A stretch of 64,000 nucleotides of DNA from Marispirochaeta sp. (GTDB lineage: Bacteria > Spirochaetota > Spirochaetia > JC444 > Marispirochaetaceae): NCBI GenBank assembly GCA_963676835.2, contig CAXXFF010000001.1, positions 512,001-576,000 of the forward strand. Reading direction: 5' to 3'. Position 1 is the first letter of the stretch. Each line of letters opens with the position of its first letter. The position numbers were made by a program, and so were the translations under genes. Shown in pieces: positions 6,451-49,105 of this stretch. A model generated the notes under the pieces. It had not been told where the DNA came from, ran no database searches, and saw only the letters and a list, made by a program, of their open reading frames with translations.

Positions 6451-6465
6451 TACAAAACCGTGGGG

Positions 6466-6885
6466 CTAGCGGCTTTCCCTGGCCGCTCTGAGAGCCTGTT
6501 CCTTGGTACTGTACATCTCAACATAAGCTCCGAAGACCCAGCCGATGAGCCCGTCATAGGAAACCTGGTACCAGTAGCCTTCCCGTCCTTCAACCTCAAG
6601 CTTCCTGCCGGACTGGCTCAAAACCTCAAGCACCACATCACGCCGGTTCCAGAAAGTAGTAACCACATCGCTTCCAGCATCGGGAGCGGAACGCAGTCTC
6701 AGATGAGAAGAGGTGATGACACCCCATTTTTCCCGCATGGAGAGAATCGGCGTGGGCGGCAGGTTTATGGACGTTACCGGCTCTTCTTTTGCGCAGGAGG
6801 CAGCAAGTACCAGGAGAAAAATGGAATATACTGCAAATCTGCCCTTTAACTGCTTACACCGCATTCTGTTACAACTCTTTCTCAT
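6466..6885 (-). CDS. SH3b-domain lipoprotein (start uncertain)
   Basis: LAASC lipobox-like; LRLRSAP...WYQVSYDGLIGWVFG. Confidence 0.7.
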   Translation of the reverse strand: MRKSCNRMRCKQLKGRFAVYSIFLLVLAASCAKEEPVTSINLPPTPILSMREKWGVITSSHLRLRSAPDAGSDVVTTFWNRRDVVLEVLSQSGRKLEVEGREGYWYQVSYDGLIGWVFGAYVEMYSTKEQALRAARESR

Positions 6886-6978
6886 TAATGAATCTTATAT
6901 AAGGATATCGGCATGGATTATAGCACAGCCCGGGAAGGATGTCAGGATTCCTTTTTACTGCCCTTTTTAATCCCCTTT

Positions 6979-8961: not shown

Positions 8962-8964
8962 AAC

Positions 8965-10197
8965 CTAGTTCCAGTACAGCTCTTCCGGCCGTTCCGAGAG
9001 TTCAAGCTGGAAGGTTTTCTCACTTCTGCCCCGGAGAACTACAACCTCTACAATATCACCTGGCCGGTTGTCTTCCAGAGCACCCAGAAGATCCGAAATT
9101 GTCTCAGTCTCCTCACCGTCGACCTTGATAATGATATCCCCTCCGAGGTAGAGCACAGAACGGCCGTAGCGGACAGGATTGTTCTGATCCCCCCCCCGAA
9201 TGCCGGCTTTCTCCGCAGCCCCCCCACGGGTAAGCTTGGACACCAGAATCCCCTTCTCCACGGGAAGCTTGGCATAACGGACAATATTCACATCCAGCTG
9301 AACCGGGACCAGATCTATCCATCCCCGGCGGACAACACCGTATTCGATAAGATCGGGAACAATTCTACGGGCGGTATCAACGGGAGAAGCAAACCCGATT
9401 CCCACGGAGCCACCGGAGGGACTGTAGATCATGGTATTTATTCCAATCATCTCTCCCCGGGAATTAAGCAGCGGCCCCCCGGAGTTTCCGGGATTAATGC
9501 TGGCATCGGTCTGAATCATGTCCCGGATAACCATATTCGAAGAGGTCCGTACCGGCCGTCCCAGACCGGAAACAATACCGGTGGTAAGGGTACGGTCGTA
9601 ACCGAATGGGTTTCCAATGGCAAGAACCTTCTGTCCCACCTTCAGATCGGAAGAGGTTCCGAAGGGTATGGTGACAAGTTCCTTCCCCGCCGGATCAAAC
9701 TTAACCACCGCAAGGTCGTTCTCGGCATCCTTGCCTACAACCTCTCCGTCGTACTGACTGCCGTCGGCCAGGTTTATATGAACCTTATAGGCCTTCTCTA
9801 CCACATGATAGTTGGTAAGAATATATCCCCGGCGGTCTATGATGGAGCCGGAACCGGTGCCGCCGTCGGAGGGTACGGGCTCGAGAAACCAGTTGAGAGC
9901 CAGGGTTTCGGTCGTAATATTGACTACCCCCTGATTCATTCGCTCATAGGTGCGGATATTCTGCAGCTCGTCTTCGGTATACTCATTTGAGTCATTAACA
10001 AAGTAGGCATGCTCAGGGGGCAGAGGGTTTGTTTCGAGATTGAAGGAGGACTCAGGCGCGGCTTTGCTGCCGGACACCGGAATTGCAGTCTCGCCGGAAG
10101 AACGGCTGAAAAGCCCAAACCCTGCGGCAATAAGAACCACAATCAGGGCGGTGGCAAGGGTATAGAAAAGCATCTGTCCGCGGCTGTAGAGTTTCAT
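8965..10197 (-). CDS. htrA: HtrA/DegP-like serine protease with PDZ domain
   Basis: TNYHVV, DLAVVK, IQTDASINPGNSGGPL. Confidence 0.9.
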   Translation of the reverse strand: MKLYSRGQMLFYTLATALIVVLIAAGFGLFSRSSGETAIPVSGSKAAPESSFNLETNPLPPEHAYFVNDSNEYTEDELQNIRTYERMNQGVVNITTETLALNWFLEPVPSDGGTGSGSIIDRRGYILTNYHVVEKAYKVHINLADGSQYDGEVVGKDAENDLAVVKFDPAGKELVTIPFGTSSDLKVGQKVLAIGNPFGYDRTLTTGIVSGLGRPVRTSSNMVIRDMIQTDASINPGNSGGPLLNSRGEMIGINTMIYSPSGGSVGIGFASPVDTARRIVPDLIEYGVVRRGWIDLVPVQLDVNIVRYAKLPVEKGILVSKLTRGGAAEKAGIRGGDQNNPVRYGRSVLYLGGDIIIKVDGEETETISDLLGALEDNRPGDIVEVVVLRGRSEKTFQLELSERPEELYWN

Positions 10198-10275
10198 GCT
10201 GCCTCCTTACTGCAACCCTTTTAATATAGCGGTATGGAGGCCCTCTGCCAACCGAGAACAGATATTCCTAAACAA

Positions 10276-11658
10276 CTACTTCATGGTGCGGGCAGCCTCT
10301 TCCAGGGCGGCCACCAGCTCTTCGGTGGAGGGAATTATGGAAGGATATTTCATCTCTCCGTTGATATAGATACAGGGAAGACAGGGTATCTCCTGATACT
10401 GAATTCTGGCTATATCACCGGGGGTGTTGTACTGAAACACCTGCATCTCTATGGCGTCTTTAAGAATTTCCTCTGCAGATTCCGCTGAAGCAAGCATGTA
10501 GGTACAGGCAGCGCAGGCCTTGGGATCGAGGAGAAAAACCTCCATCAAGGGCTTTTCCAGGGAAGAATAGTCCGGCAGACGCACCTGTATATTTGCGAAA
10601 CTGCCTCCGGTGGAGTATTTCTTTACAATATCCCTGATTGCATTTCGTTCCTGTACCGCCTGGGCTACGCCTACTGCATTTTCAGGAGGTACATCGTAGG
10701 GCATGTCGCAACCCGGAGCTATAATCAGATTCTTTGTAAGAGAGAGTCCCGCACCTTCGATCCTGTCCATGAGATCAATGGTAAACTTCATGTTATCCAT
10801 CTGGTTTCCGAAGAGCATGACCGTTGTAAGGGGAATGTTTCCTCCAAGTACAATATTGTACTTGTCGGTAATGGTTTTTGCCTCGATCATGTTAACATTT
10901 TCATCCACCGCAATGGCATCAGGCGCGGTACGGCACATATTTTCTATGTTGAAGATGGCATTGCCGCAGACAAAGAGAGAACTGAAGGCCTTGCGGCTGC
11001 GGATATGATCAAAAAGCCGGGTGTAGGGTTCCAGAAAAAACTGCTCAAAATGCTTCGGAGAGATCTGTGACATAAGCGGATCAACAGGAACAATCACGTC
11101 CATGCCCTCATCGATATAGTAATCCGCCATGGCAATGGCAATATCCGTTGTGTAGGCAATAATCTTATGGATATATTCAGGCGCCTTGACCAGATTCATG
11201 AAAAGCTTCATCCCCCTCAGGTGAGAAGCTAGGGTCAGGGGACCGCAGAACAGACCATAGAGGGCGGTAGTCTCACCGACGGCCTCTTTAAACCGGCGCA
11301 TCACATCCCAGACCATGGGCAGACGGCCCTCATCCTTTCCAGGAATCTTTGTCGGAATCTCATCGGTTTTTTCTAATGGATGACTCACCACCGAGGGCAG
11401 ATTGTTCTCTATCCAGGCAAGTTCGCAACCGAGAATCTCTGCTTCAAGCTGCAGATCAAACATAACGGTCTGACCGTCGGGACTGTAAAGACGGTTAACC
11501 TCCATAAGGGATTCAAACAGTTTATCCGGATCCTGAAGCACCTCTATGGCGTTGTATCCTCTGGTTTTTCCCGCATGGATGCCCGCATAAGGAACCCATG
11601 GCGGACGTTCCACCTCTTCGTGACGGAGTACTTTATATATAAGCTCTTTACCGTTCAT
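10276..11658 (-). CDS. UroD/MtaA-family (MT2-type) methyltransferase with C-terminal thioredoxin-like CxxC domain
   Basis: LEAEILGCEL, GPLTLA, GGNIPL, APGCDMP; C-terminal CAAC...PCIYING; start set at ATG 11658 behind GGAG. Confidence 0.8.
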   Translation of the reverse strand: MNGKELIYKVLRHEEVERPPWVPYAGIHAGKTRGYNAIEVLQDPDKLFESLMEVNRLYSPDGQTVMFDLQLEAEILGCELAWIENNLPSVVSHPLEKTDEIPTKIPGKDEGRLPMVWDVMRRFKEAVGETTALYGLFCGPLTLASHLRGMKLFMNLVKAPEYIHKIIAYTTDIAIAMADYYIDEGMDVIVPVDPLMSQISPKHFEQFFLEPYTRLFDHIRSRKAFSSLFVCGNAIFNIENMCRTAPDAIAVDENVNMIEAKTITDKYNIVLGGNIPLTTVMLFGNQMDNMKFTIDLMDRIEGAGLSLTKNLIIAPGCDMPYDVPPENAVGVAQAVQERNAIRDIVKKYSTGGSFANIQVRLPDYSSLEKPLMEVFLLDPKACAACTYMLASAESAEEILKDAIEMQVFQYNTPGDIARIQYQEIPCLPCIYINGEMKYPSIIPSTEELVAALEEAARTMK

Positions 11659-11680
11659 AGCATAATCTCCTGCTCTGGTA

Positions 11681-12352
11681 TTAAAAATATTGCTCCATCC
11701 CCATAACTTCTCCGGGTGGCAGAATGATAATATCTTCCGACTCTTCAAAGAGAAGCATCCGCTCAAACAGACTTCCCCGGACAGAGCGCTCCTCAAATTC
11801 AAGGGCGAACTCATCTGCAAACCCTTGAGAAATCTCCCGGTACTTTTCCATTCCGTATGCCCCGGTATCAAGCAGCATGATCCTTCTGTAATGGGTAAGG
11901 ATCATCCCCATATACTCCCTGGCCTGCTCTTCGCCGTAGCGCTCTTTGTACGCCGGATATTCAAGGAGATGGCACTGCCCTTCTGCGGACTCAATAAAGC
12001 CTTTTGTCAGGTAGAGGGTTCCCTGTTCCTCTTCCGTGGCTTCACGGAACTGCCTGTGGGAACCGAAAAAAAGACCTATACAGTCATGCACCCGGGGAAA
12101 AACAAGCTCTTTGTCCGCAGAAGTGAGCCCGACAACACTGTTTGAACAGAGTCCGATACCGAAAATAATCCGTCTGATTTCCGCCGGGGCAGTGTCTATG
12201 GTTTCCTGCAGATAGCTGTTCATCTCTTCCTGACGGCTGTGTTTTTCAAAGGGAACAACATGAACCATCATCTCCGGTGGAATGAGTTTTCCGTATTCGT
12301 ACACTACAGTCTGGCAGATAACCACCATGGTATCGGCAGGGGGAGTATTCAT
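11681..12352 (-). CDS. DUF1638-like protein associated with corrinoid methyltransferase clusters
   Basis: N-terminal Cys (IC), GIGLCSNSVVGL, PRVHDCIGLFFGS, LYLTKG. Confidence 0.7.
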   Translation of the reverse strand: MNTPPADTMVVICQTVVYEYGKLIPPEMMVHVVPFEKHSRQEEMNSYLQETIDTAPAEIRRIIFGIGLCSNSVVGLTSADKELVFPRVHDCIGLFFGSHRQFREATEEEQGTLYLTKGFIESAEGQCHLLEYPAYKERYGEEQAREYMGMILTHYRRIMLLDTGAYGMEKYREISQGFADEFALEFEERSVRGSLFERMLLFEESEDIIILPPGEVMGMEQYF

Positions 12353-12370
12353 ATCACCGTAAAATGTAAA

Positions 12371-12389
12371 CCGGCAGCACTGCTGCCGG
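12371..12389 (-). terminator. Perfect inverted repeat followed by T-rich run on minus strand (hairpin/terminator-like)
   Basis: CCGGCAGCA-C-TGCTGCCGG just after the corrinoid gene stop, followed by TTTACATTTT on minus strand. Confidence 0.45.
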
Positions 12390-12401
12390 CCATATTCTGC
12401 A

Positions 12402-13100
12402 TCAGGCGTTCAGGGCGCCGAGAATAATCGGCTCCTGACTGCCTCCGGCAGCCCCGCGTTCCATAAGCTGGTTGCAGAGATGCACACATTCACCGGCGGT
12501 ATTTGAGTACCCGTCGGCACTTATCATCTGCGTCCACTGGGGAGTAACCGGCCCTCCGCCGAGAATTACCGAATACTTATCCCGGATCCCCATAGCTTTA
12601 AGGGTCTCAATAAGCTCTTTCTGGTAGGGAAGAGAGGTGGTAATAAGGGTTGAGCAGGCAATTATATCCGCCTCTTCCCTCACTGCAGTATCAATAAACT
12701 GCTTTACTCCTACATCAATTCCCAGATCGACGACCTTGAAGCCGTTGGCGGAAAGCACCGCCTTGACCAGGTTCTTTCCGATATCATGGTGATCCCCGGC
12801 CATTACTCCCAGAATGATAGTCCCGGACTCGGCACCGTCGCCTCCGCGTTTGCGGATTTCCGCAAGAAGAATATTCATTGCCTCAGTGGCCGCCTCACCG
12901 CCGAGCATCAGCTCCGGAAGAAAGGCTTCTCCGTCCTCAAACTGCTGGCCCATAAGATCCATGGCAGTCTGAATCCCCTGTTTGATTACCGTCAGGGGCT
13001 CCAATCCGGCAGCCAGACTCTCTTCTGCAGCCTTTGCGGCATCTTCAGCCTCGCCTTCCATAACAGCGTTATACAGTTTCTTGATTATTTCATCTGACAT
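12402..13100 (-). CDS. Methyltransferase cognate corrinoid protein (MtmC/MttC-like)
   Basis: Cap domain (MGQQFEDGEAFLPELM) plus B12-binding DxHxxG (GDHHDIGKNLV), GGGPVT. Confidence 0.92.
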   Translation of the reverse strand: MSDEIIKKLYNAVMEGEAEDAAKAAEESLAAGLEPLTVIKQGIQTAMDLMGQQFEDGEAFLPELMLGGEAATEAMNILLAEIRKRGGDGAESGTIILGVMAGDHHDIGKNLVKAVLSANGFKVVDLGIDVGVKQFIDTAVREEADIIACSTLITTSLPYQKELIETLKAMGIRDKYSVILGGGPVTPQWTQMISADGYSNTAGECVHLCNQLMERGAAGGSQEPIILGALNA

Positions 13101-13156
13101 ATCGTCTCTCCTGATTACGTTCTCTTTTCAAATCAGCTCAAATCGGCACTCAAAAT

Positions 13157-14536
13157 TTAAGCCAGGGGAAATCCGCTTTTAACGGCCTCTTCCCGTACCT
13201 GGTCATATACCTTCTCCGCCTCCGGCAGGGGCCGGAAATTCTTCAGATCCCAGACCTCTTCCACGGGCTTTCCAATATCCGGCGTTTTGATCTGATCCTC
13301 GTATTTGGGGGCGAAGGTTTTCGCAAGCTCGTTCACAGATTCCAGGGACATTCCCGATGCAGCATGGGCAACTTCAGCACACCAGCGGCACTCAAGGGGA
13401 GAAAGATAGTCATTGAACTTTCCTCCCGCTGCCCGGGGACCGGTACTGAAAGCGGCACCTGACGCGGCAATAATGGAAACTCCAACCAGGGTTTCGTACA
13501 TAAGGCCCGGTGTTCCCGGTCCGCTTACCTGGTTTGCAATACCGTGGGAGCAGATATGGGTGTTTCTGCTCAGGGCCTGGTGGGTAACACTGAGAGCCCA
13601 GAGTCCATCCCGGTTTACATTGGAGAGATAGCGGATATCGTAGAGTTCTCCACCGCCGACGGTGGAAAAGAGCACTGCATACTGAAGAAGACCTGCAGCG
13701 ATACTTGAGATGATAGCCCCTTCAGGGGTTCCCGGCATTCCACCGATCATTCCCGGAGAACCGGCAAATATCATTCCATCGACTTCAAGGGAATGGACTA
13801 CCTTGTGAAGAGTCTGATTATTGATCTTCAGCTCAGAAGGATAGAGAATCAGCGAGAGATCGGTATTATAGAAACCATCCTTTGCGCCATAGCAGAACTG
13901 ACCGTATTCGGTAACCGCGGAAATATTACCGATTCCCGGCATACCTTCCCGTCCGGCCTTTTTGCGGATAACCCGGTGCATCTTGGCCTGCTCATAGGTT
14001 AGCAGGGTTTCCGAAGGATCATTGGGAAGGGCTTCAAGTCCGTTGATGGTACACATGGATCCGCCTTCCAGAAGGTCAACCTCAAGCTGACGGGCAATAC
14101 CTTCAGTAAGCAGAGGCCATTTATCTTCCGAGATAGTTATACCCAGAGAAGCTCCGAAAAGCATGGGTCTGGGATCCTCGGGAACCCGGCTTTTCATAAC
14201 CCGCTTGTCCGGTCCGAAACCGAGGGTTACTTCCGAAGGGGCCAGATGAAGGGCGCTTTTAAGTTCGTCTTCACTGATGCGTATTATTCTCTCCCGGGCT
14301 TCGTTATACATACCCAGTTCCAGGGCCAGCTCAAATCCAGCCTGGAAAAACCTGTCTGCCAGCTCCATGTTGGTGTTTACAGGATTCTCCCGGTCTACAC
14401 TCTTCTGAAGCTCATACTTCTGCAGCATTTTCTTTACCGCCTGGGGGATCTTTTTCAGGTCCCAGTCCCTGGCACTGCAGTACTCTCCCTCACGGGAACG
14501 GCGTAAAATCTCTATCAAATCCGGTTTCTGTTTCAC
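13157..14536 (-). CDS. mtmB: MtmB-family (monomethylamine:corrinoid methyltransferase-like) protein lacking pyrrolysine
   Basis: 459 aa; LADRFFQAG, AGREGMPG-I-G, ELKI, GGMPG, SGPGT, LECRWCAEVAHA, GKPVEEVWDL are collinear with archaeal MtmB as I recall it; no in-frame TAG. Confidence 0.8.
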   Translation of the reverse strand: MKQKPDLIEILRRSREGEYCSARDWDLKKIPQAVKKMLQKYELQKSVDRENPVNTNMELADRFFQAGFELALELGMYNEARERIIRISEDELKSALHLAPSEVTLGFGPDKRVMKSRVPEDPRPMLFGASLGITISEDKWPLLTEGIARQLEVDLLEGGSMCTINGLEALPNDPSETLLTYEQAKMHRVIRKKAGREGMPGIGNISAVTEYGQFCYGAKDGFYNTDLSLILYPSELKINNQTLHKVVHSLEVDGMIFAGSPGMIGGMPGTPEGAIISSIAAGLLQYAVLFSTVGGGELYDIRYLSNVNRDGLWALSVTHQALSRNTHICSHGIANQVSGPGTPGLMYETLVGVSIIAASGAAFSTGPRAAGGKFNDYLSPLECRWCAEVAHAASGMSLESVNELAKTFAPKYEDQIKTPDIGKPVEEVWDLKNFRPLPEAEKVYDQVREEAVKSGFPLA

Positions 14537-14806
14537 AGTCTACTCCTTATAAAACGTGATCATACAGACCTGTCACTGTCTGGTTGAATTAGTGTTTTAG
14601 AAAGAAGGCAGTTATACTAAGTTCGTGAAATCGCCATTCAAGCAGCTTGGTTTTAGACTTGCACCAGTTGCAAGGTTTCATTTGCCTGTGATTAAAATGC
14701 TTTCACTATAACCACAATCTTTTTTTCCGGCCCTTACCTGAAAGTATGGTACAGAAGGTACGGAACATTCCAATCTCTTTTACTGCTTTCCTCCTCCCGT
14801 TCTCCC

Positions 14807-16690
14807 TTATATCCCCCGGGGAATATCAAAATACATATGCGCCATCAGCCTCCGGCTGAAACCTTTATCAAAGGAAAGTTCCAGATAATCCAGACTCTCC
14901 CTCAGCTTTCCTGTACGGCGGCGAAAATCCCCGGACAGGGTATAATAGACCGCACCCCGCTGGGAGGTGTTCCCGGAAGGAATCACCCGGCCCTTAAGCT
15001 CTGCAGGCAGAAGCCCGATCTGAAATGCGCTCTCAGGATCAAGGGCACTGCCGAAACCGCCTGCAAGATAGACCATCTCAACATCTGTTACCGCCATGTT
15101 CCGGCAATTGAGCAGGGTCTCTATTCCGGCAGCAACCGCACCCTTGGCCAGTTGAACCTCCCTGAGATCCTTCTGGGAAAAATAAACCGGCGAACCATGG
15201 GCCGATTCCGATGCAGGTGAAAGGAGAAATACCTCCTCACCGTCTATAGTTGTCCGGCGGGATTTCAGCTCATCTCCGGTAGATGACGAAAGCTTATCCA
15301 CTGCCAGAAAACGGCCTTTGCCGTCAACCAGGCCTTCCCGTACAAGAAGGGCGGCTATGTCGACGATACCGCTGCCGCAGATACCGGAAGGAGCTCCTCC
15401 TCCAATGCAGCCAGTTTTCAGACGGCCTGTATCCGCTTCAAAAACAACACTGTAAACCGCACCGGCTATACTGCCGGTCCCGCAGGCAATATGAGCCCCT
15501 TCAAAGGCCGGACCCGCCGCGGTGGCACAGGAAACAAGCGCATCCCTGCTGCCCAGAACAATTTCTCCATTGGTGCCGATATCCACAAAAAGAGCGGTCT
15601 CTTCCTGCATATCCATACCAACCGCGGCAATCCCGACGGTAATATCCGCACCGATGTAGGCGGAACGTCCCGGAACAAGCCTGGTAACCATTTTACCGAA
15701 AGGGCTGCTGCCCAGGGGACCGGTTCCTTCTGCAAAATGCAGTGCCTCGGTAAAAACCGGCACATAGGGCGTCTGGGCTATCCCCAGGGGATACACTCCG
15801 GCAAAAAGGTGCAGCATACTGGTGTTGCCTGCCAGAACACAGGAATTCACCTTTTCCGGTCTGATTCCATTTTTTATGCAGAGATCTTCCATCATCTCCC
15901 CAATCTGAAGAGTGATGGAATCCTGCAGCTCCTTAAGCCCTTCCACTGAATCTGCAGCATGGGAAATCCGGGTAATTACGTCGGCACCGTAGATTCCCTG
16001 CCGGTTCAGACCCGCCCGCCGGTCAATCTCCTTACCGCTGCTGGCATCAACCAGACTGACAACAACCGATGTAGTTCCTATATCTACTGCAAAGGACCAG
16101 AGGGCTGCGGAGGTATCCCCGGATTCAATATCCAAAACCCTGTTTCCGTCCAGAATCAAAGTAACCCTTCTCTCCCGCAGCTGCACAAGCCGGGAAAGAC
16201 TATCTGCAGCTGAGCCGGAAAAAACCATATCCTCTATCCCTGAAACCTTCCGTACCTGGTCAAAAAGGTTCAGCTGGCTCTTCCCGTCCCTCTCCTCAAG
16301 GAGAATCATCTGCTTGCGGACAAGAGGGCTAACTACCCCCCCGAAAGCCACAGGGGAGACCAGCACTGCTGCCTCTCCGGAACTCTGCAGCTCAACCGTA
16401 AGATCCCCGGATGGAAACAGGCGGCATGCCAGCCGCATCCCGCTTTTAAGCTCCTGTTCCGAAAGAGACTGCTTTTCTTCCGGACCGGGTTCACGACAGT
16501 CACCGGATAAAATCCGAACACGGCATTTTCCACAGGTTCCCTTCCCGCCGCAGGGAGCGGCCATTTCCCGGCCGGAGCGGCTTTTTCTCAAAACCTCGAG
16601 CAGACTCGGTCCGGGTGGAAAATCAACAAACTCGTTACCGGGAATAATTTCAAGTCTGAACTCCCCGGAATTCACCTCTCCTGCAGCCAC
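14807..16690 (-). CDS. Corrinoid reductive activator (RACo/RamA-like; 2Fe-2S + ASKHA ATPase)
   Basis: CGGKGTCGKC...RLAC, DIGTT, GADVITRI, DIGTNGE, AAGPAFEG, GICGSG. Confidence 0.9.
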   Translation of the reverse strand: MAAGEVNSGEFRLEIIPGNEFVDFPPGPSLLEVLRKSRSGREMAAPCGGKGTCGKCRVRILSGDCREPGPEEKQSLSEQELKSGMRLACRLFPSGDLTVELQSSGEAAVLVSPVAFGGVVSPLVRKQMILLEERDGKSQLNLFDQVRKVSGIEDMVFSGSAADSLSRLVQLRERRVTLILDGNRVLDIESGDTSAALWSFAVDIGTTSVVVSLVDASSGKEIDRRAGLNRQGIYGADVITRISHAADSVEGLKELQDSITLQIGEMMEDLCIKNGIRPEKVNSCVLAGNTSMLHLFAGVYPLGIAQTPYVPVFTEALHFAEGTGPLGSSPFGKMVTRLVPGRSAYIGADITVGIAAVGMDMQEETALFVDIGTNGEIVLGSRDALVSCATAAGPAFEGAHIACGTGSIAGAVYSVVFEADTGRLKTGCIGGGAPSGICGSGIVDIAALLVREGLVDGKGRFLAVDKLSSSTGDELKSRRTTIDGEEVFLLSPASESAHGSPVYFSQKDLREVQLAKGAVAAGIETLLNCRNMAVTDVEMVYLAGGFGSALDPESAFQIGLLPAELKGRVIPSGNTSQRGAVYYTLSGDFRRRTGKLRESLDYLELSFDKGFSRRLMAHMYFDIPRGI

Positions 16691-16710
16691 TTCGACGAAT
16701 GCCCCGGTAA

Positions 16711-17652
16711 CTACCGTTCTTCCCTGAAGTAGGAGACACCCAGTGCCTGGGGAGCTTTGCTCACGCTGCTGCGGCGCACTGCATCCATAATCAGAATCAG
16801 AATGGTCATGCCGTAGGGAAGAACATCCAGCACATACTGGGATACGGGCAGATCAAATTTCTGCAGCCGGAAACCGATTATATCCAGACCGCCGAAAAAG
16901 AGAGCGCCTAAAAGAAGGCGGTAGGGATTCCATTTTGAAAAGATAACCAGCGCAACAGCGATCCACCCCCTGCCGGCAACAAGTGAATCCTGCCAGGCCG
17001 GAACATATACGAGAGAAAGGTAGCCTCCGGCAAAACCGCACAGGCCGCCGCCAACCAGGAGGTGAACATACTTGTAGAGCCCCACGGGAATACCCAGAGC
17101 GTCCGCAGCAGCGGGATTTTCCCCCACGATGCGGAGATTGAGTCCTGTCCTGGTGGTGTACAGATAGAGGCCGGATACAAGAACCAGCAGAAAGCTTATA
17201 TAGATGAGGATATCGTGGTTGAAGAAAATCTCCCCCAGATAGGGAATATCACCAAGTACCGGAAGCTTCAGGGGCCGGAAAACCTGCATAATACCATCCG
17301 GGGCCTTCTGGCCCACCATGGAAGCTCCTGCAAATCCTGCAAAACCTGTTCCGAACAAAGTAAGGGTCAGACCGGTTACAATCTGGTTGGCCCTCATACT
17401 GATGGTAAGAAAACCGAAAATTAGTGCACCGGTCATTCCCGCAAGTACAGAACCGGCAACAGCCATAAGAGCCGAGCCGGACTGAAGACCGAAGTAGAAG
17501 CCCATGACAGCGCCCATATACATCATGCCTTCAACCCCCAGGTTGAGACTGCCACTCTCTTCGCTGATCAGCTCACCGAGGCCGGCTATCAGAAGAGGAG
17601 TTGCAGACACCACCGCGGCGGCCAGAAAGTTTACTACCCAGGCACTATCCAT
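16711..17652 (-). CDS. Nucleoside-type (CUT2) ABC permease
   Basis: LNLGVEGMM, ANQIVTG, GENPAAAD, AGRGWIAVALV. Confidence 0.88.
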   Translation of the reverse strand: MDSAWVVNFLAAAVVSATPLLIAGLGELISEESGSLNLGVEGMMYMGAVMGFYFGLQSGSALMAVAGSVLAGMTGALIFGFLTISMRANQIVTGLTLTLFGTGFAGFAGASMVGQKAPDGIMQVFRPLKLPVLGDIPYLGEIFFNHDILIYISFLLVLVSGLYLYTTRTGLNLRIVGENPAAADALGIPVGLYKYVHLLVGGGLCGFAGGYLSLVYVPAWQDSLVAGRGWIAVALVIFSKWNPYRLLLGALFFGGLDIIGFRLQKFDLPVSQYVLDVLPYGMTILILIMDAVRRSSVSKAPQALGVSYFREER

Positions 17653-18773
17653 TACCTTTCTCCTTCCTCCGGGGTTCCCTCATCTTCAGTCTCTGTTACC
17701 GGTGAAACAGCAGCATGCCTGCCGGAGGAGAAACTGAAGTGAACCTTGTAGCGGATAAAAAACTCGCTGCCCAGAACAAAGAACAGAATAAGCCCCTGGA
17801 GCAGATCTGCAGCTGCCTGGGGAATATGATACACAGTCTGAATAAAGGAACCGCCTTCCACCATGACAGCGAAAAAGAACGAGGCAATCAGAATAGTCAC
17901 CGCGTTCAGCTGGGCGAGCCAGGCGATTATTATGGCGGTATACCCCACCCCGTTGCTGACATCCACACTCAGGGTACTGTTAACTCCGGAAACCTGGATC
18001 ATGCCCACAAGACCGCAGATACCGCCGCTGGCAAACAGGGTTGCTCCGATAATCAGGGGAACGTTCATGCCGGCATAGCGGGCAGTCTCTTCACTTTCAC
18101 CAATAACCCGAATCTCATAGCCTTTTTTAGTGTAGCGTATAAACAGAAAGAGCCCTGCCACCAGCACCGGCAACAACAGCAATCCGATATGCACCCCGAA
18201 AAGATCGGGTAGCTGGCCGTTTTCCGCCAGATTAGGGATTTTCGGATAGCCGTATGCCTCTTTATCCCGCCAGGCGACATACTGAAGCCAGGTTATCCAC
18301 TTAAGGGCAACATAATTCAGCATCAGTGTAAGGATTGTTTCGTTGGCTTTAAAGCGTATTTTAAATACCGCGGGAAAGAGCGCCCAGATGCCGCCGGAAA
18401 ACACCGCCACAAGGGCCATGAACAGCAGAAGCAGCGGCCTCGGCATCTCTGGAAATGTGAGGGCCGCCCAGGTTGCCGCAAAGGCTCCCATCATAATCTG
18501 CCCTTCGCCGCCGATATTCCAGAACTTCATTCTGAAAGCAAGGCTTATCCCCAAAGAGGCGATGGCCAGGGGAATGGTACGCACCAGGGTTTCCCGGAAG
18601 CGGTAGCCGCTTCCAAGGCCTCCGTCCAGCATGGATCGGTACACAGAAAAGGGGTTGTACCCCATTAACGCAAGAAGGATTCCCGCCGCTGCCAGGGCGG
18701 CCAATACCGCCAGCAACCGAATCCTGAGGCGGGACTTGAGTGGTGTCTCTGCAATCTGGGTTAATCGGAACAC
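17652..18773 (-). CDS. Nucleoside-type (CUT2) ABC permease
   Basis: WNIGGEGQ, NETILTLMLNY, GYTAIIIAWL; GTG start at 18773 behind GGGAG. Confidence 0.88.
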   Translation of the reverse strand: MFRLTQIAETPLKSRLRIRLLAVLAALAAAGILLALMGYNPFSVYRSMLDGGLGSGYRFRETLVRTIPLAIASLGISLAFRMKFWNIGGEGQIMMGAFAATWAALTFPEMPRPLLLLFMALVAVFSGGIWALFPAVFKIRFKANETILTLMLNYVALKWITWLQYVAWRDKEAYGYPKIPNLAENGQLPDLFGVHIGLLLLPVLVAGLFLFIRYTKKGYEIRVIGESEETARYAGMNVPLIIGATLFASGGICGLVGMIQVSGVNSTLSVDVSNGVGYTAIIIAWLAQLNAVTILIASFFFAVMVEGGSFIQTVYHIPQAAADLLQGLILFFVLGSEFFIRYKVHFSFSSGRHAAVSPVTETEDEGTPEEGER

Positions 18774-20284
18774 GATTTGTACTCCCCTAATTGTGACATA
18801 AGCAGTCCAAGTTCCTCTTTCCCCGTTTCGGCGGCAGAAAGAATACCCGATACCTCGCCGCAGTACAGCACCATTATTCTGTCGCACACTTCAAGGAGCA
18901 GATCGAGATCTTCAGCCACAAGCAGCACACCAGCACCGGCGGCTTTCTGCTCATTCAGCATATCGATAACCGTATGGGTTACCCCGAGGTCCAGACCGCG
19001 CACCGGATAGGCTGCAATAAGAACATCCGGCCGGGTATCGATTTCCCGGCCCAGCAGCACTTTCTGCATATTACCCCCGGATAAAACCCGGATAGGCCGG
19101 TTAATCCCGGGGTGCATTATACTCAGGGAGTCTGTCAGTTCCTCCGATTTTTTCTTTCCGAAGGCACGGTCAAAGAGCATCCCCTTCCGGCTTCTGTACT
19201 GGCGGAGCATGATATTGTCCACCAGGTCCATGCCGGTGGCGAGCCCCATACCCGTCCGGTCTTCCGGAATGTATGCCATGCTGATTTCGGGATCGGTTAG
19301 AATCTGCCGGGTTGATTTACTGCTTATATCAGTACCGCAGACAGAGATACGTCCTGCCTGAATCTTCTGCAGACCCAGAAGTGCATGGCAGAGCTGTTTC
19401 TGGCCGCTGCCGGAGACACCGGCTACACCGAGAATTTCTGAACCATGCAGGGTAAAGCTTATATTCTTAAGCTCCCTTGACGCCTCTTTATCTTCGATAC
19501 TGAGGTTTTCCACCTCAAGAACTACCCGCCCCGGGGCGGTTTCCACCCGGGGGTACTCCATATTCATGGATTTACCCACCATAAGCTCTGCCAGAAGCTT
19601 CTGACTCACCTCGGAGGTATTAACCGTTTTTACCAGCCGTCCTTTTCTAAGCACGCTGACCCGGTCGCTTATTTCCATAACCTCGTTGAGCTTATGGGTA
19701 ATGATGATGGTTGTCTTTCCCTGCATTTTCATTTTACGGATAATGCAGAAAAGAACCTCTGTCTCCTGAGGGGTAAGCACCGTGGTGGGCTCATCGAGAA
19801 TCAGAATATCCGCCCCCCGGTAGAGAACCTTCAGAATTTCTACTGTCTGCTTTTCCCCGACACCCATGTCTCGGATTTTTCTGTCCAGATCTACACAAAG
19901 ACCGGTATCATCGGAAAGACTTTGTATTCTCTCCTTTATTGCCCGGGGTTTGAGGAACAGGGAGCCCTTTGTTCCGGCGCAGATATTTTCCCAGGAGCTT
20001 AAGGCATCTATTAGTTTGAAATGCTGATAGATCATACCGATACCGGCGGCAATTGAATCCTGGGGAGACCGGAACCTCTGTTCCTTTCCCCGGAGATGTA
20101 TACTCCCCGAATCGGGAGCATAGATACCGGTAAGGATATTCATGAGGGTACTTTTACCTGCACCGTTTTCACCCAGCACGGCATGAACCTCACCTTCCCG
20201 GACAGATAGATCTATTCTGTCATTGGCTTTGAGACTGCCGAATTCCTTGGTAATTGATTCCATGCGGATAAATTCACCGGACAC
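18761..20284 (-). CDS. Double-domain ABC ATPase (sugar/nucleoside type)
   Basis: GENGAGKST, LDEPT, LSGGNMQK. Confidence 0.92.
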   Translation of the reverse strand: MSGEFIRMESITKEFGSLKANDRIDLSVREGEVHAVLGENGAGKSTLMNILTGIYAPDSGSIHLRGKEQRFRSPQDSIAAGIGMIYQHFKLIDALSSWENICAGTKGSLFLKPRAIKERIQSLSDDTGLCVDLDRKIRDMGVGEKQTVEILKVLYRGADILILDEPTTVLTPQETEVLFCIIRKMKMQGKTTIIITHKLNEVMEISDRVSVLRKGRLVKTVNTSEVSQKLLAELMVGKSMNMEYPRVETAPGRVVLEVENLSIEDKEASRELKNISFTLHGSEILGVAGVSGSGQKQLCHALLGLQKIQAGRISVCGTDISSKSTRQILTDPEISMAYIPEDRTGMGLATGMDLVDNIMLRQYRSRKGMLFDRAFGKKKSEELTDSLSIMHPGINRPIRVLSGGNMQKVLLGREIDTRPDVLIAAYPVRGLDLGVTHTVIDMLNEQKAAGAGVLLVAEDLDLLLEVCDRIMVLYCGEVSGILSAAETGKEELGLLMSQLGEYKSCSD

Positions 20285-20339
20285 CGTAACTGTTCCCCTC
20301 TTTTTCCTTTATTTCAGAACATCGTACAAAAAGAAAGTC

Positions 20340-20371
20340 TGCAGAACCCCCGGATATACAGGGGCTCCGCA
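20340..20371 (-). terminator. Hairpin between binding-protein gene and ATPase (mRNA-stabilising/attenuating)
   Basis: TGCGGAGCCCC-N10-GGGGTTCTGCA on minus strand. Confidence 0.5.
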
Positions 20372-20380
20372 TTCTATGCA

Positions 20381-21457
20381 TTATTCTGCAATCTTACCGA
20401 TTACACCTTCAACAAGCCAGTTCATGCCGAGAAGTGCACCATCATCGGGTGTTGTACCTGCGGGTACAACGGTTTCACCCTCATTATTTTTAAGAGGACC
20501 CGCAAAGACCACAAGAGAACCGTCGGCGATTTTCTTCTGGGCTGCTGCAACAGCTTCCGCTGCTCCGGCAGGAGCATTCTTGCCCATTTCAGCTACACGG
20601 ACAATATCCTCGTCCATGCCGCCCCAGTAGTTCACCGCTTCCCAGGTTCCATTCATAACTTCCTGAACAGCCTGAATATAGTAGGGCTCCCAGTTCCAGT
20701 AGGCAGAGGTCAGACAGGCATCGGGTGCTGCATCATTCATGTCTGCATGGTAGCCGATACCCCATACTCCCCGGGCTTCTGCAGCCTGAAGGTTGGCAGG
20801 TCCGGTCTGGTGCTGGGCAATGATATCGCATCCATTGTCAATAAGAGCATTGGCAGCTTCCTTCTCTTTAGGAGGATCATTCCAGTTGTGAGTCCAGATA
20901 ACTTCTACTGTGGCATCGGGATTAACACTGCGCACACCGAGGGTAAAGGCATTGATTCCCCGTACAACCTCGGGAATCTCAAAAGCGGCAAGGTAGCCGA
21001 TCTTATTGCTTTCAGTCTTCATCCCGGCGACAATACCGGACAGGTAACGGGCCTGATACATACGTCCAAGATAGTTGATCGCATTGTCCGCCTGCTTGTA
21101 TCCGCCGCAGTGGAAGAATTTGACATCCGGATTATCCGCGGCAACTTCCAGCATATAGTCCATATAGCCGAAACTTGTTGCAAAGATCATCTTCGCGCCC
21201 TGGGAAATCATGTCACGCATAACCTTTGCAGACTCCTGAGTATTGGGAACACTCTCTTTATAGAGTGTTTTTACTCCAAGCTCTTTCTCAATAGCCAGAC
21301 GACCTCTGTCATGCTGCTGTGTCCAGCCGCCGTCACTTATCGGACCGGTAAAGACAAACCCTACAGTGAACTGCTCTTCCTGCTCACTCTGACCGCCGGC
21401 ATAAGCGAAAGCTGTCAGAAGAGCCAGGCCCAAAAGAAGGACCAGTAATTTTTTCAT
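20381..21457 (-). CDS. BMP-family (PnrA/Med-like) ABC substrate-binding protein
   Basis: GPISDGGWTQQH, FATSFGY, YLSGIVAG, PEVVRGINAFTLG. Confidence 0.9.
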   Translation of the reverse strand: MKKLLVLLLGLALLTAFAYAGGQSEQEEQFTVGFVFTGPISDGGWTQQHDRGRLAIEKELGVKTLYKESVPNTQESAKVMRDMISQGAKMIFATSFGYMDYMLEVAADNPDVKFFHCGGYKQADNAINYLGRMYQARYLSGIVAGMKTESNKIGYLAAFEIPEVVRGINAFTLGVRSVNPDATVEVIWTHNWNDPPKEKEAANALIDNGCDIIAQHQTGPANLQAAEARGVWGIGYHADMNDAAPDACLTSAYWNWEPYYIQAVQEVMNGTWEAVNYWGGMDEDIVRVAEMGKNAPAGAAEAVAAAQKKIADGSLVVFAGPLKNNEGETVVPAGTTPDDGALLGMNWLVEGVIGKIAE

Positions 21458-21808
21458 ACCTAACTCCTAAGAATAGTATTTATGGAAACTCTGCCGCACT
21501 GCAGAATTTTCATCCCTGACTGAGGAGAATCGAAGTTAAGAGTGAGTATAACAGGTAGACTATCAATCTCTTCACATCCGTTCCCTGATGGAAACTGATA
21601 CAAATAGATTCAATTTTTATGCACACACACTGCAGCGTGAGCAAGCACGGTCTGTTTTAAACTTGCGATTGCAAGGTATCTTGTTACCTGCCGGATACAT
21701 AAAGAACCAATGTACCAGTAGATTATTTTGAAGAAGTATTTCCAACACCATGCAATCCCTGAAGGATCTATGGTATTTTTCCGTGAATACAACTCTTCGC
21801 AAATAAGT

Positions 21809-22138: not shown

Positions 22139-25100
22139 CTACTTTGACTGCAGATAGCCGTTCAGAAGATCCAGCGCCTTTTCATACTCAATATCTTCAA
22201 TCTCTTTCTGTATTTCCAGAAAAACCTCTGCATCAGCTGTCCCCTTCATACGCAGTACAAGCTCTTCAACCACATCTCCCGCCCGGGAATCATCCCCCAG
22301 TAAGAGCGCCTTAAGGTCACCTGCAAGATCTGAAATATCCTCTGGAGAGGTTTCAGCCGCTGTATCAGGGGGACTCTCTTCAACAAGATGGTTGTTTATC
22401 TCAGTTACTATGGTATCGAGGATATTCCCAATCTCGTTCAGCAATGCCGCTGTTTGATCCTGTTCGTCACCCTTAAGCAGACTTTCCAACCCCCGGGCCT
22501 TTTCCTGGAGTTCCGAAGCGCCTACGGTACCGGCTATCCCTTTCAGAGTATGGGCAATCCTGACAGCCTCTTCCATCGACCCGGAGTTTATGGCTTCCTG
22601 TATTCTTACGTGTGCTCCCCCCTGATTGGATGCAAACTGCCGCAGCAGCTTTTTATACCTGCCGATATTCCCTCCGGTTCTCTCGATTCCAGAAGAAACG
22701 TTTATTCCCGGAAGAACCGGAATGGAACCATCGGGACTATCAGCGGCTCCATTCCGGCCGGACAGGGAGGCTATATACTCCCCGGGCAGCACTCTTTTCC
22801 CCGGGGTAATCCATTTATACAGCACCGAATAGAGAGCCTCAGGATCAACCGGCTTTGTTACATAATCGTTCATGCCGATCTTCAGCACCTTTTCGGAAAC
22901 ACCACTCATGGCATCAGCAGTCATGGCTATTATGGGAAGATCAGCAAAACGTACATCTTCACGGATCAGTTCGGTTGCAGTATAGCCGTCCATAACCGGC
23001 ATCTGCAGGTCCATAAGCACAAGATCAAAGGATTCACCCTCTGCGGAAGCAAGGACCGCATCAACCGCCTCTTTTCCATCCCTGGCAAGGGATACAACAA
23101 AGCCTTCTCCTTCGAGCAGTTCCGTAGCCACCTGCTGATTAAACTCATTATCTTCAACCAGGAGCAGCCGGGAACCTCTGACCTCATCGAAATTATCCGG
23201 AATAACAATATCAGCTCCCCTTCGGGGGGTCCTTACCGCAACATCGAAGCCGAAAACATCCATAATAGTATTAAAAAGCACCGACGGACTTACCGGTTTT
23301 ACCAGAAACGCATCGATACCAATATCCTCAGCCAGCATCATATACTCTTCCCTGCCATAGCCCGTTACCAGGATCACTTTTGTATATTTTCCCAGTTCAG
23401 GATTGGATTTGATAATTCCCGCGGCCTCAATACCATCCATATCGGGCATACGGAGATCCATCAGCACCAGGGGTATGCGCTTTTCGCCGGCAGAGTCTTC
23501 AAGAATCTCCAGAGCATCCACCGCTGATGTGGCGGTGGTAACCTCAAAACCGAATTCTTTGATAATATTGCGCATGGTACCAAGAGAGTTTTCATCATCA
23601 TCTACAATTAAGACCCTGAGACCTTTCAGATCCAGTCCGGGAGTCGCATACTTTTTATCCTTCCCGGCCTGTTCACTCTGGAGCCTGAATGGAAGTTTTA
23701 CCCAGAATGTACTGCCTTCTCCCGGAGCCGAAATAACACCGATCTCACCCCCCATTAACTCCGACAATTTCTTGCTTATGGCAAGTCCGAGACCGGTCCC
23801 TCCGTATTTTCGGGTTGTGGAGGTATCTGCCTGGGTAAAGGACTGAAAGAGCTTATCCTGCTGCTCCGGAGTCATACCAATACCGGTATCCCGTACACTG
23901 AAGCGGACCAGTACAGATTCTTCGTCTCTTTCAAGAATCTCAGCAGACACCAGAATATCGCCCTCTTTGGTAAACTTAACGGCATTACTACTCAGGTTCA
24001 GAAGGATCTGCCCGAGACGCAGAGGATCACCGATTAAGTAGGCAGGAAAATCCGGGGCAAGATCGAATTTCAGTTCAAGGCCCTTTTCATTGCATTTTAC
24101 CCCGATCATGCCAGCCAGGTTGTCCAGAACATCATCAAAGACAAAAGGCACCGTCTCTATTTCCAGTTTTCCCGCTTCAATCTTACTGAAATCAAGAATA
24201 TCGTTGATGATATTCAGCAATGATTTTGAAGACTGATCTATTTTATTCAGGTAGTCCCGCTGGCGGTGGGTAAGCTCGGTTTTCAGAGCAAGGTGGCTCA
24301 TTCCGATAATCGCATTCATGGGAGTCCGGATTTCGTGACTCATGTTGGCCAGAAAGTCACTTTTTATCCGGTTGGCAGCCTCTGCAGCCTCCTTGGCTTC
24401 CCACAGGGCGGTTTCTCCTTTTTTACGCTCCGTAATATCCTGCAGCCAGCCTAGAACCCCCTCTTCTCCCTCGTAGGTAATGGGAAGAAAGGTAATCAGG
24501 TAGTCCCGGATATCCCGGTTTATGTCTATCAGTTTTATTTCGTGGTTATCCAGCACTCCCGTCTCATGCATCTTCTCAATTACTTCCTGCCTGTCCTCAG
24601 GGTTCTGATATATTTTTATAGCAGGGTCTCCAATATCCAGGCCGAACATTTCGACGAATCTATGGTTGGTAAAGCGGAAAATCCCGTTAAAGGTAAATGC
24701 AACCCCCACAGGAGCATTATTCAGAATAAACTCCAGCTGGTCCCGGGCCCTTTTTATCTCGTTTTCCGCCCGCTTGCTTTCAGTAATATCTTCCAGTGTG
24801 CTGATTACATCATAGGGATAGCCACCTGAATGCACCGGGTTGAACAGTATTCTTAAAAATGCCTTTTTACCTCCGGTAACTGAAATGTACTCACCCTCAA
24901 ATTTGGAATTCTTCCCCGTAAGTGCCGTTGTTAAGGTCTGACGCATCTCCGGATCAACTATCTGCCTGGGAGCATTAAAGCCGAGCAGCTTCTCCATTGG
25001 TGCTCCCAGGTAATCTGCAGCAATGGAGTTACAATTAATAATGGTGCCTTCACTGTTGAAGTGAATAATGCCTATGGGAGAGTTTTCAACAATAATACGC

Positions 25101-43541: not shown

Positions 43542-43665
43542 CTGCCTTCGACTCCGCTCAAGCACCGCGTCTTAACGGTGAATGCTGCCTTCGACTCCGC
43601 TCAGGCAGCGCTGGTACGACGCGGGGTGAGAAGTCCTACTCTTCATATACCGTAACCATCCCCTC
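43542..43665. repeat. Junction repeat R1 (two TGCCTTCGACTCCGCTCAGGCA-type hairpins + SH3-gene 3' end)
   Basis: Motif copies at 43543-43564 and 43586-43607; homologous to R2 and R3. Confidence 0.9.
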
Positions 43666-44889: not shown

Positions 44890-44938
44890 ACTCTTATTCT
44901 CTCCTCAAGTAAGCATACATGTGTGAAAAACTACCAGA

Positions 44939-47716: not shown

Positions 47717-47845
47717 CTGCCTTCGACTCCGCTCAGGCACCGCGTCATAAAGGTGAATGCGGACCTGCCTTCGACTCCGCTCAGGCATCGCTGGTATGAC
47801 GCGGGGTGAGGGGCCCTACTCCTCATACACCGTAACCATCCCCTC
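47717..47845. repeat. Junction repeat R2
   Basis: Motif copies 47718-47739 and 47766-47787; outer IR CCGCGTCATA (47740-49)/TATGACGCGG (47795-804). Confidence 0.9.
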
Positions 47846-49075: not shown

Positions 49076-49105
49076 CCTTCAACTCCATATTTAATAAGCA
49101 CAACA

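Follow-up and report, generated by a model that had tools for sequence, protein, structure and literature searches.

The generic chemistry of corrinoid methyl transfer by three components is established, and the removal of N-methyl groups from purine alkaloids is familiar from NdmABCDE of caffeine-degrading Pseudomonas, Rieske N-demethylases which need O2 and release formaldehyde; to our knowledge, no enzyme is known for the O2-free N-demethylation of methylated purines. Wherever RNA, DNA caps or purine alkaloids break down, such purines are set free. A 2026 preprint describes the conversion of caffeine N-methyl groups to methane in anoxic sediment, its accessible text naming no specific enzyme, and a full-text literature search of our own, partly weakly designed and with supplements outside its coverage, returned no paper linking MtmB or corrinoid methyltransferases to purines. 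Here we describe a nine-gene cluster at positions 10276-21457 of a 64,000-nucleotide stretch (hereafter the window) of the genome of Marispirochaeta sp. (Spirochaetota; assembly GCA_963676835.2, contig CAXXFF010000001.1, positions 512,001 to 576,000), in which a substrate-binding protein of the BMP/PnrA family and the rest of an ATP-binding cassette (ABC) importer stand beside a corrinoid system. We give a rough probability of 0.6 to the reading that this cluster imports an N-methylated purine-like base and removes its methyl group by B12-dependent methyl transfer, a reading for which the comparative evidence, on which the case rests entirely, is strong.

Two sets of described proteins frame the comparison. 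With its corrinoid protein MtqC, MtqB of Methanococcoides methylutens Q3c is a tetramethylammonium/choline methyltransferase, and the accessible part of the 2026 paper on it places 1,061 MtmB sequences in a tree, where all but the pyrrolysine enzymes and the MtqB branch are left 'of unknown function' (PMC13044021). On the side of import, the accessible text on the binding protein AtzT gives a Kd of 0.11 uM for guanine and 2.5 uM for adenine, whilst GTP is not bound, and its ligands also include hydroxyatrazine and ammeline. The ring is sandwiched by Tyr45 and Trp194 and takes hydrogen bonds from Ser97, the Phe98 backbone, Glu165, Asn218 and Asn220, the two asparagines adjoining the N-alkyl arms of hydroxyatrazine. 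The same paper notes that the related structure 3S99, 54% identical to AtzT, was deposited with adenine.

The MtmB homologue and the binding protein

To judge by its predicted proteins, the system is of the corrinoid three-component kind, and its substrate:corrinoid methyltransferase (MT1) belongs to the MtmB family without the pyrrolysine that defines it. The match spans profile positions 3-447 of 450 (Pfam PF05369), and the alignment with PDB 1L2Q covers residues 6-451 (7.3e-45). The family resemblance is full-length, and the in-frame UAG of MtmB proper (Pyl202) is absent: the reading frame is open throughout, isoleucine stands opposite the pyrrolysine (X) of 1L2Q, this residue (I202) is invariant in 15 aligned homologues, and none of the homologue matches that span the position in the 70 loci surveyed below has a stop there. 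The host genome (4.43 Mb, 97.3% complete) has no PylS_Cterm match, and its best PylD match reaches 25.6 bits against a cut-off of 150, so that a first-pass annotation of this DNA, made from the letters alone, was right to call the protein pyrrolysine-free. It is the sole MtmB homologue of the genome. Its closest counterpart, with 97% MtmB identity, lies in a locus (L001) of a Marispirochaeta metagenome-assembled genome (MAG). A more distant orthologue in a Spirochaetes MAG (L011, 10001-11374) has one stop inside its tblastn match and an open frame of only 417 aa, and may be a pseudogene or an assembly error.

The best matches of the binding protein in the PDB are 3S99 (6e-86) and AtzT (6PI5, 5.3e-83), with the nucleoside binders far weaker (TmpC, 2FQW, 4.8e-11; BmpD, 6SHU, 1.3e-05). 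Mapped by hand through the printed alignments to AtzT and 3S99, its pocket consists of W45, S95, F96, E163, G167, W192, H216 and T218; seven of these eight positions are the same in 3S99, and at the eighth the window protein has Thr218 where 3S99 has Asp. The protein therefore shares with the purine-base subgroup the PF02608 fold, the aromatic sandwich and the Ser/Phe/Glu contacts (W45, S95, F96, E163, W192), and departs from it in having Thr218 in place of the acidic or amide residue found at the position of AtzT Asn220 and the 3S99 Asp. This departure follows a sharp line through the 121 closest homologues: the 24 orthologues with at least 66% identity carry Thr (22) or Ser (2) at residue 218, and the 97 homologues below 66% carry Asp (96) or Asn (1). 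Each of the seven genome loci with a close orthologue of the binding protein is linked to MtmB.

On these alignments, a single fixed difference in the pocket, at a ligand-contacting residue, separates the MtmB-linked clade from ordinary binders of purine bases. The loss of an acidic acceptor together with a gain of space is as would be expected if the contacted ring nitrogen is methylated. Three other types of MtmB-linked BMP protein, 25-37% identical to that of the window, also score AtzT and 3S99 above every nucleoside binder, and the two sandwiching tryptophans are kept in nearly all 34 MtmB-linked BMP proteins, the polar residues varying. The first-pass annotation had proposed methylated nucleosides or bases as the substrate; with 3S99 and AtzT as the closest relatives, the bases stand and the nucleosides become less likely, and free bases would be the more likely cargo. 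We infer, besides, that purines methylated on a ring nitrogen are chemically better methyl donors than N6-methyladenosine.

Recurrence of the association across genomes

If the importer and the methyltransferase belong together, they should meet again elsewhere, and they do. A pattern scan over one genome per species yielded 70 loci encoding MtmB-like relatives, whose neighbours were identified by tblastn with the window proteins and locus representatives (E <=1e-8, at least half of the query covered). A BMP-type transporter is present in 29 of the 70 loci and in 27 of the 44 that extend over at least 12 kb; for a subunit of the xanthine dehydrogenase (XDH) family the counts are 31 and 24, and for a deaminase-type amidohydrolase (Amidohydro_1) 29 and 25. 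Any of the three occurs in 48 of the 70 loci and in 39 of the 44 longer ones, the five without being L018, L059, L062, L065 and L066; where a longer locus holds an MtmB at least 50% identical to that of the window, the proportion rises to 30 of 31. The loci linked to BMP span Spirochaetota, Verrucomicrobiota/Kiritimatiellota, Chloroflexota, Actinomycetota, Bacillota and archaea. The first-pass annotation had staked its inference in part on the transporter being conserved beside mtmB homologues in other genomes, and at these frequencies it is.

Pfam and NCBIfam confirmed the identities of the neighbours in the six loci that were scanned. An enzyme in L002 passes the cut-off for the XdhD type (TIGR03313; 1324.7 bits against 1101.9), and that for 8-oxoguanine deaminase (NF006055) is passed by amidohydrolases in L011 and L023, two of them in the latter; L020 holds an XDH close to PucD (735 bits against 784) and a deaminase of the cytidine deaminase (CDA) fold. 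GntR/UTRA regulators recur among the scanned loci, and in L011 and L020 a pterin-binding enzyme replaces the uroporphyrinogen decarboxylase-like (URO-D) protein as the second methyltransferase (MT2). In L002-L006, the five closest relatives outside Marispirochaeta, FAD and Mo subunits of an XdhD-type enzyme lie between the DUF1638 and URO-D genes, and in L002, where genes were called, these subunits abut or overlap their neighbours; loci of the L002 type also encode a MarR protein behind the cluster.

The phylogeny tells a similar story. In a maximum-likelihood tree of 95 homologues, the window protein falls inside a 17-row clade (SH-aLRT 99) drawn from Spirochaetota, Chloroflexota and Verrucomicrobiota/Kiritimatiellota, the other 16 members of which all have BMP, XDH or amidohydrolase neighbours within 8 kb. 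Seven spirochaete loci keep the gene order; the proteins of the transporter, MtmB, the corrinoid protein and the URO-D protein are 62-97% identical, against 33-59% for RACo and 40-73% for DUF1638. The same holds between the window and Marispirochaeta L001, where identity is 94-97% for MtmB, the corrinoid protein and BMP, and falls to 59% for RACo and 73% for DUF1638; the cluster looks mosaic, as though the RACo and DUF1638 genes had been exchanged. Of 301 Spirochaetota genomes, 19 including that of the window have an MtmB homologue, and in the other 18 it is only 26-32% identical, a patchy distribution consistent with lateral transfer. At the other extreme, an Anaerolineales MAG and an Acidimicrobiia MAG (the genomes of L014 and L020) contain islands (G301:C1:2817-52110 and G302:C13:55770-127264) that hold most of their 17 and 10 stop-free MtmB paralogues, interleaved with BMP and XDH genes, which suggests families of position- or substrate-specific demethylases.

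The host of the window encodes a candidate for the downstream chemistry elsewhere. Another contig carries a purine/urate cluster (L073, G000:C2:1504000-1523999) with YgfK, SsnA, YgeY, XDH and its FAD subunit, an amidohydrolase of the 8-oxoguanine-deaminase type (576 bits against a cut-off of 532), an XdhD-type enzyme (1303 against 1102) and YgeW; most members lie above their NCBIfam cut-offs, and by its content the cluster appears typical of anaerobic purine/urate breakdown.

Accessory proteins, a hairpin element and the surroundings

All nine genes that the first-pass annotation had listed are present and placed as it had them (Table 1), down to the 20 bp that separate the last permease from RACo (16691-16710). 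They are co-directional and lie head to tail, transcribed in the order BMP, ABC ATPase, two permeases, RACo, MtmB homologue, corrinoid protein, DUF1638 and a fusion of URO-D and thioredoxin-like (Trx) domains, as assigned by Pfam. The best NCBIfam rows of the ATPase are B6, allose, xylose and ribose ATPases, every one of them below its cut-off. The URO-D reading frame reaches 11871; its most likely start is the ATG at 11658, behind a ribosome-binding site AGGAG at 11672-11668, because the paralogue and orthologues align only from there, and this correction and that of permease A leave the span of the cluster unchanged.

Table 1. Genes of the cluster and nearby nucleic-acid features, in window positions
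Feature	Position	Strand	Details
Upstream motif copy	21637..21697	-	core CCTTGCAATCGCAAGTTTAAAAC at 21654-21676; BMP start codon some 200 nt downstream
BMP/PnrA-family substrate-binding protein	20381..21457	-	358 aa; Pfam Bmp 1.9e-63; signal peptide MKKLL...AYA/GG
Stem-loop between BMP and ATPase genes	20340..20371	-	13 pairs, 8 of them G-C, T-rich tail; from a scan for terminator-like structures
Tandem-domain ABC ATPase, sugar/nucleoside (CUT2-like) type	18761..20284	-	507 aa; Pfam ABC_tran in two stretches
Permease A (BPD_transp_2)	17652..18773	-	open reading frame extends to 18887; likely start GTG 18773 behind GGGGAG
Permease B (BPD_transp_2)	16711..17652	-	313 aa
RACo/RamA-type ATP-dependent reductive activase	14807..16690	-	Fer2 1.3e-09, Raco_middle 7.9e-45, RACo_C_ter 3.1e-69
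66-nt element in the 270-nt gap between RACo and mtmB	14630..14695	-	outer helix and hairpin CCUUGC...GCAAG, then UCUAAAACC
Pyrrolysine-free MtmB-family methyltransferase, predicted substrate:corrinoid MT1	13157..14536	-	459 aa; Pfam MtmB 1e-65
Corrinoid (B12) protein, cap and Rossmann domains	12402..13100	-	B12-binding_2 3.8e-16, B12-binding 1.3e-23
DUF1638 protein	11681..12352	-	Pfam 4.5e-38
URO-D/MtaA-like methyltransferase with thioredoxin-like domain, predicted MT2	10276..11658	-	460 aa; Pfam URO-D 6.3e-51

Two of the accessory proteins are as the family descriptions would have them. The corrinoid protein has the B12-binding_2 cap, the B12-binding domain and the DxHxxG cobalamin motif, in the form GDHHDIG, and the activase has 2Fe-2S, middle and ASKHA ATPase domains, scoring 374 bits on the NCBIfam AcsV row, below the cut-off of 800. 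The DUF1638 protein is likely an accessory to corrinoid reactivation: in the accessible text of the papers concerned, DUF1638 is found together with RamA-like activases, B12-dependent methionine synthesis requires it in Phaeobacter, and Ruegeria induces it alongside RamA.

The URO-D protein is the less conventional partner. It aligns with MtaA (PDB 4AY7, 5e-20), its score on the MtaA/CmuA row is 131 bits against a cut-off of 235, and its C-terminal part resembles small thioredoxin-like proteins (NCBIfam NF047660, 9e-05), with a CAAC motif that is invariant in all seven orthologues and paralogues. In the ESM Atlas this fusion falls only in unnamed clusters of URO-D plus Thioredoxin_3. A 55% identical paralogue sits on another contig in a second corrinoid cluster (L071, G000:C3:796000-812000, within it 5795-12105, minus strand), together with RACo, a PocR/AraC regulator, a corrinoid protein and a CobW-family GTPase, and without MtmB or MttB. 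As for the fate of the methyl group, Pterin_bind matches in the genome are a full-length MetH and one further gene, itself unexamined, and no stand-alone pterin-binding methyltransferase was found there; because a stand-alone methyl-corrinoid:tetrahydrofolate methyltransferase was not found in the genome, our best guess for the acceptor is a thiol. That guess would agree with what has been proposed for bacterial MtaA-like proteins, which are linked to methyl-selenide and methyl-sulfide chemistry in the accessible text of bioRxiv 10.1101/2023.07.31.551370.

Could the transporter and the methyltransferase also be regulated together? The gap between RACo and mtmB contains a 66-nt block that is kept in all seven spirochaete loci though its flanks are not conserved: a hairpin CCUUG(Y)...(R)CAAG, its closing pair C-G, U-G or U-A and its loop of varying length, followed by an invariant U(C/U)UAAAACC tail. 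The core motif, CCTTG-N4-12-CAAGT-NN-AAAAC, has exactly two copies in the 4.43-Mb genome, where shuffled sequence would give 0.2, one before mtmB (14650-14675) and one before the BMP gene (21654-21676), and it is found upstream of BMP in L001, L003 and L005 too. A model of the element (R1) gives the upstream copy 14.8 bits (E 0.021), its own training sequences scoring 68-77 bits. A motif so shared would tie the transporter and methyltransferase units into one regulon. As to its nature, the motif may be a riboswitch, an RNA-protein site or an operator: a scan of window positions 6000-30000 with Rfam 15, at E up to 0.1, gave no match, and of the 11 pairs that RNAalifold predicts only one covaries among the seven sequences, which is too thin to decide between an RNA element and a DNA operator, whilst the variable spacing argues for an RNA hairpin over a dimeric operator. 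Searching metagenomes for AACCTTG-N4-12-CAAGTYTAAAACC returned 32 stretches, about the total of a rough chance estimate. Genes for MtmB, RACo and the corrinoid protein adjoin only two of them (L086 and L098, both nearly identical to the L002 type), and within 2.5 kb of the other 30 no corrinoid-cluster gene is seen, apart from one weak ABC-ATPase match; the element has therefore been seen only in this spirochaete group so far.

The genes that flank the cluster are unrelated to it, HtrA and UvrB downstream and a large hybrid sensor kinase directly upstream. This kinase (22139-27874, minus strand, 1911 aa) combines dCache, HAMP, several PAS, HisKA/HATPase, two receiver and Hpt domains; we considered it as the sensor of the cluster and dropped it, as neither L001 nor any other locus has it upstream of BMP. 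Further away in the window, two tandem gene pairs of similar sizes (43636-46612 and 47816-50737, minus strand) each encode an SH3_3-domain protein (417 or 419 aa) and a 557- or 543-aa protein without a Pfam match, in a stretch of low G+C content (0.40-0.43 against about 0.50 elsewhere). At 31429-32277 (plus strand), among housekeeping genes, a protein of the metallo-beta-lactamase fold matches the anti-Pycsar Apyc1 family (9e-38).

Weighing the readings against described systems

The pathway that the parts suggest would run as follows. In the periplasm, the BMP protein would capture a planar methylated base between Trp45 and Trp192, Thr218 (Asp in the relatives without the link) making room for a methylated ring nitrogen or dropping the need for a hydrogen bond to it, and the ABC system would import this ring-N-methylated, purine-like base. 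The MtmB-like enzyme would offer the N-methyl group to the corrinoid protein in its Co(I) state, leaving methyl-Co(III) and the demethylated base; the URO-D-Trx enzyme would move the methyl from methyl-Co(III) to its acceptor, at best guess a thiol, and RACo, likely with help from the DUF1638 protein, would spend ATP and a low-potential electron to bring Co(II) back to Co(I). The demethylated purine could then feed into the anaerobic purine/urate pathway whose genes lie in another part of the genome, and the hairpin motif before the transporter genes and mtmB may co-regulate both units. In this the first-pass annotation, which had inferred an anaerobic, B12-dependent N-demethylation coupled to the importer, appears well supported by the comparative tests, namely the closeness of the BMP protein to base binders, its pocket change and the survey of loci. 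As for the substrate itself, 7-methylguanine, which is ubiquitous, would be the leading single candidate, with no more than about one chance in four, because of the guanine/adenine-like pocket, the frequent partners of the 8-oxoguanine-deaminase and XdhD types, and that very ubiquity.

Several points weigh against this reading. The window cluster has no XDH-family enzyme, no deaminase and no purine-catabolic enzyme, and the XDH-family enzymes and deaminase of the host are about 1 Mb away on another contig. The MtmB-linked BMP proteins of other phyla, at only 25-37% identity and with different polar pocket residues, probably have different ligands for those very reasons. Of the zinc site of MtaA, the URO-D enzyme keeps both cysteines, and the histidine is replaced by phenylalanine in all seven orthologues, so that its chemistry and acceptor are uncertain. 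Nor are the families of the neighbouring enzymes confined to purines: their members also take nicotinate, pterins, triazines and further ring compounds, and both XDH-family and Amidohydro_1 enzymes abound in these genomes. The recurrence also has its limits: the rough chance expectation of 2-8% per 20 kb comes from five genomes of 3-5.4 Mb (4-12 Bmp and 4-16 XDH large-subunit matches each) in which a Bmp gene lies within 10 kb of 20 of the 35 MtmB matches and an XDH gene within 10 kb of 23, and these genomes, the two with MtmB islands among them, were picked for already showing the link; loci from related organisms, likewise, are not independent. The enrichment is far above background, and the excess counts by its size, not as a P value.

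Which other readings could accommodate these observations? The same architecture might serve a different methylated N-heterocycle, such as a pyridinium betaine (trigonelline, homarine, N-methylnicotinamide), a methylated pyrimidine or pterin, or an N-alkyl triazine. The Trp-Trp sandwich, kept almost throughout the linked BMP proteins, demands only a planar ring, AtzT accepts hydroxyatrazine and ammeline as well as purines, the XDH family includes nicotinate, quinoline and nicotine-pathway hydroxylases among its PDB rows, and several of the linked amidohydrolases have their best scores on TRZ/ATZ-type or 5'-deoxyadenosine-deaminase rows, all below the cut-offs. We nevertheless consider this unlikely, given that Ser95, Phe96, Glu163 and His216 are exactly as in adenine-bound 3S99, that the enzymes scoring above curated cut-offs are of purine type (TIGR03313, NF006055), and that the genome encodes a purine/urate pathway. 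A methylated nucleoside might instead be imported, its base being released or demethylated within the cell, as the presence of nucleoside binders in the BMP/PnrA family (2FQW, 6SHU) and a gene resembling methylthioadenosine (MTA) phosphorylase near one Verrucomicrobiota locus could be taken to imply. This is distinctly unlikely when the nearest solved relatives bind free bases, with GTP not bound by AtzT in the text available, when all three of the other linked BMP types tested also match AtzT and 3S99 better than the nucleoside binders, and when neither a nucleoside hydrolase nor a phosphorylase lies in the window cluster.

Pyrrolysine-free relatives of MttB classically act on quaternary amines, and the MtmB homologue could in the same way demethylate a quaternary or simple amine, with a BMP transporter that carries the amine or is functionally unrelated. 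The precedent of MtqB, which in the accessible text is the sole pyrrolysine-free MtmB with demonstrated activity (on choline and tetramethylammonium), speaks for such a function and is a further point against a purine-like substrate. Against the amine stand a purine-like BMP pocket, the absence from the cluster of any betaine/choline-type carrier recognised by Pfam, the association with transporter, XDH and deaminase genes that recurs across phyla, and the motif common to the transporter genes and mtmB, and we rate this very improbable. Finally, the adjacency might have no meaning for a pathway at all, an ordinary purine-salvage importer having come to lie beside a corrinoid system for methyl or thiol salvage, for example of methyl-sulfur or methyl-selenium through the URO-D enzyme. 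Indeed, the URO-D-Trx paralogue keeps company with RACo, a corrinoid protein and CobW where there is no MtmB, and bacterial MtaA-like proteins have been tied, in the text accessible to us, to methyl-selenide and methyl-sulfide chemistry. Yet gene order is kept in seven spirochaete loci, the change from Asp to Thr/Ser is confined to the orthologue group linked to MtmB, both units share a motif, and the enrichment is far above background, which leaves coincidence a very low probability.

Returning to the import and B12-dependent demethylation of an N-methylated purine-like base, we would tentatively entertain, at somewhat less than even odds, a broader idea: that MtmB proteins without pyrrolysine form the core of a widespread, O2-free and B12-dependent demethylation of methylpurines (7-methylguanine, other methylpurines derived from RNA and DNA, and methylxanthines such as caffeine), with paralogues specialised for the position of the N-methyl group and wired to purine-base importers, XdhD-type hydroxylases and 8-oxoguanine-type deaminases, and, in this spirochaete lineage, with a new RNA element that senses the substrate. 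If true, such a route would give the MtmB sequences 'of unknown function' a testable function, link the turnover of nucleic acids in anoxic habitats to the metabolism of one-carbon units and possibly of methyl-sulfur compounds, and provide oxygen-independent N-demethylases for biocatalysis. For direct tests, the Asp-to-Thr switch in the pocket and the hairpin motif specific to the cluster offer compact starting points.

How, then, does the cluster compare with systems already described? With MtmB/MtmC/RamA of Methanosarcina (PDB 1L2Q, 1NTH) it shares the MT1 family, a cognate corrinoid protein with DxHxxG and an ATP-dependent activase, and it differs in having isoleucine for pyrrolysine with no PylS or PylD found, an activase of the bacterial RACo type, a bacterial host, a dedicated BMP-type ABC importer, and a heterocycle rather than methylamine as the predicted substrate. 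The glycine-betaine system MtgB/MtgC/MtgA of Desulfitobacterium and marine Rhodobacterales, built on pyrrolysine-free relatives of MttB, follows the same logic of a lost pyrrolysine and a larger methylated substrate, and in its accessible descriptions it has the same set of MT1, corrinoid protein, MT2, RamA/RACo and DUF1638; its MT1, in contrast, belongs to PF06253, a family with no member in the host genome, its MT2 is a pterin-binding enzyme that methylates tetrahydrofolate, and its carriers are of betaine type. NdmABCDE resembles the predicted system in outcome, as N-methyl groups are removed from purine alkaloids position by position before xanthine oxidation, and is unrelated to it in sequence, cofactor and mechanism; the islands with multiple MtmB paralogues recall NdmA/B/C.

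For the binding protein, AtzT (6PI5/6PI6) and the Brucella BMP protein 3S99 are the closest solved relatives by a wide margin, sharing the aromatic sandwich and the Ser/Phe/Glu contacts, whereas the position of Thr218 is held by Asn220 in AtzT, reported to hydrogen-bond guanine in the part of that work accessible to us, and by Asp in 3S99. MtqB/MtqC, compared here from the accessible text of the paper, in which the MtqB branch is marked by a conserved Met/Cys/aromatic pocket, likewise pairs a pyrrolysine-free MtmB homologue with a corrinoid protein, and differs in being archaeal, in feeding coenzyme M via MtqA/MtbA and in acting on quaternary amines (PMC13044021). The Type 1 mlp clusters, lastly, combine MtaA-like URO-D methyltransferases with a corrinoid protein and an activase (RACE), with no tetrahydrofolate methyltransferase in the accessible description, and their authors propose thiol or selenol methyl chemistry (bioRxiv 10.1101/2023.07.31.551370); the Marispirochaeta cluster differs from these in its single URO-D gene, which lacks the zinc-site histidine and is fused to a CxxC thioredoxin-like domain, and in the partners of that gene, an MT1 of the MtmB family and an importer.

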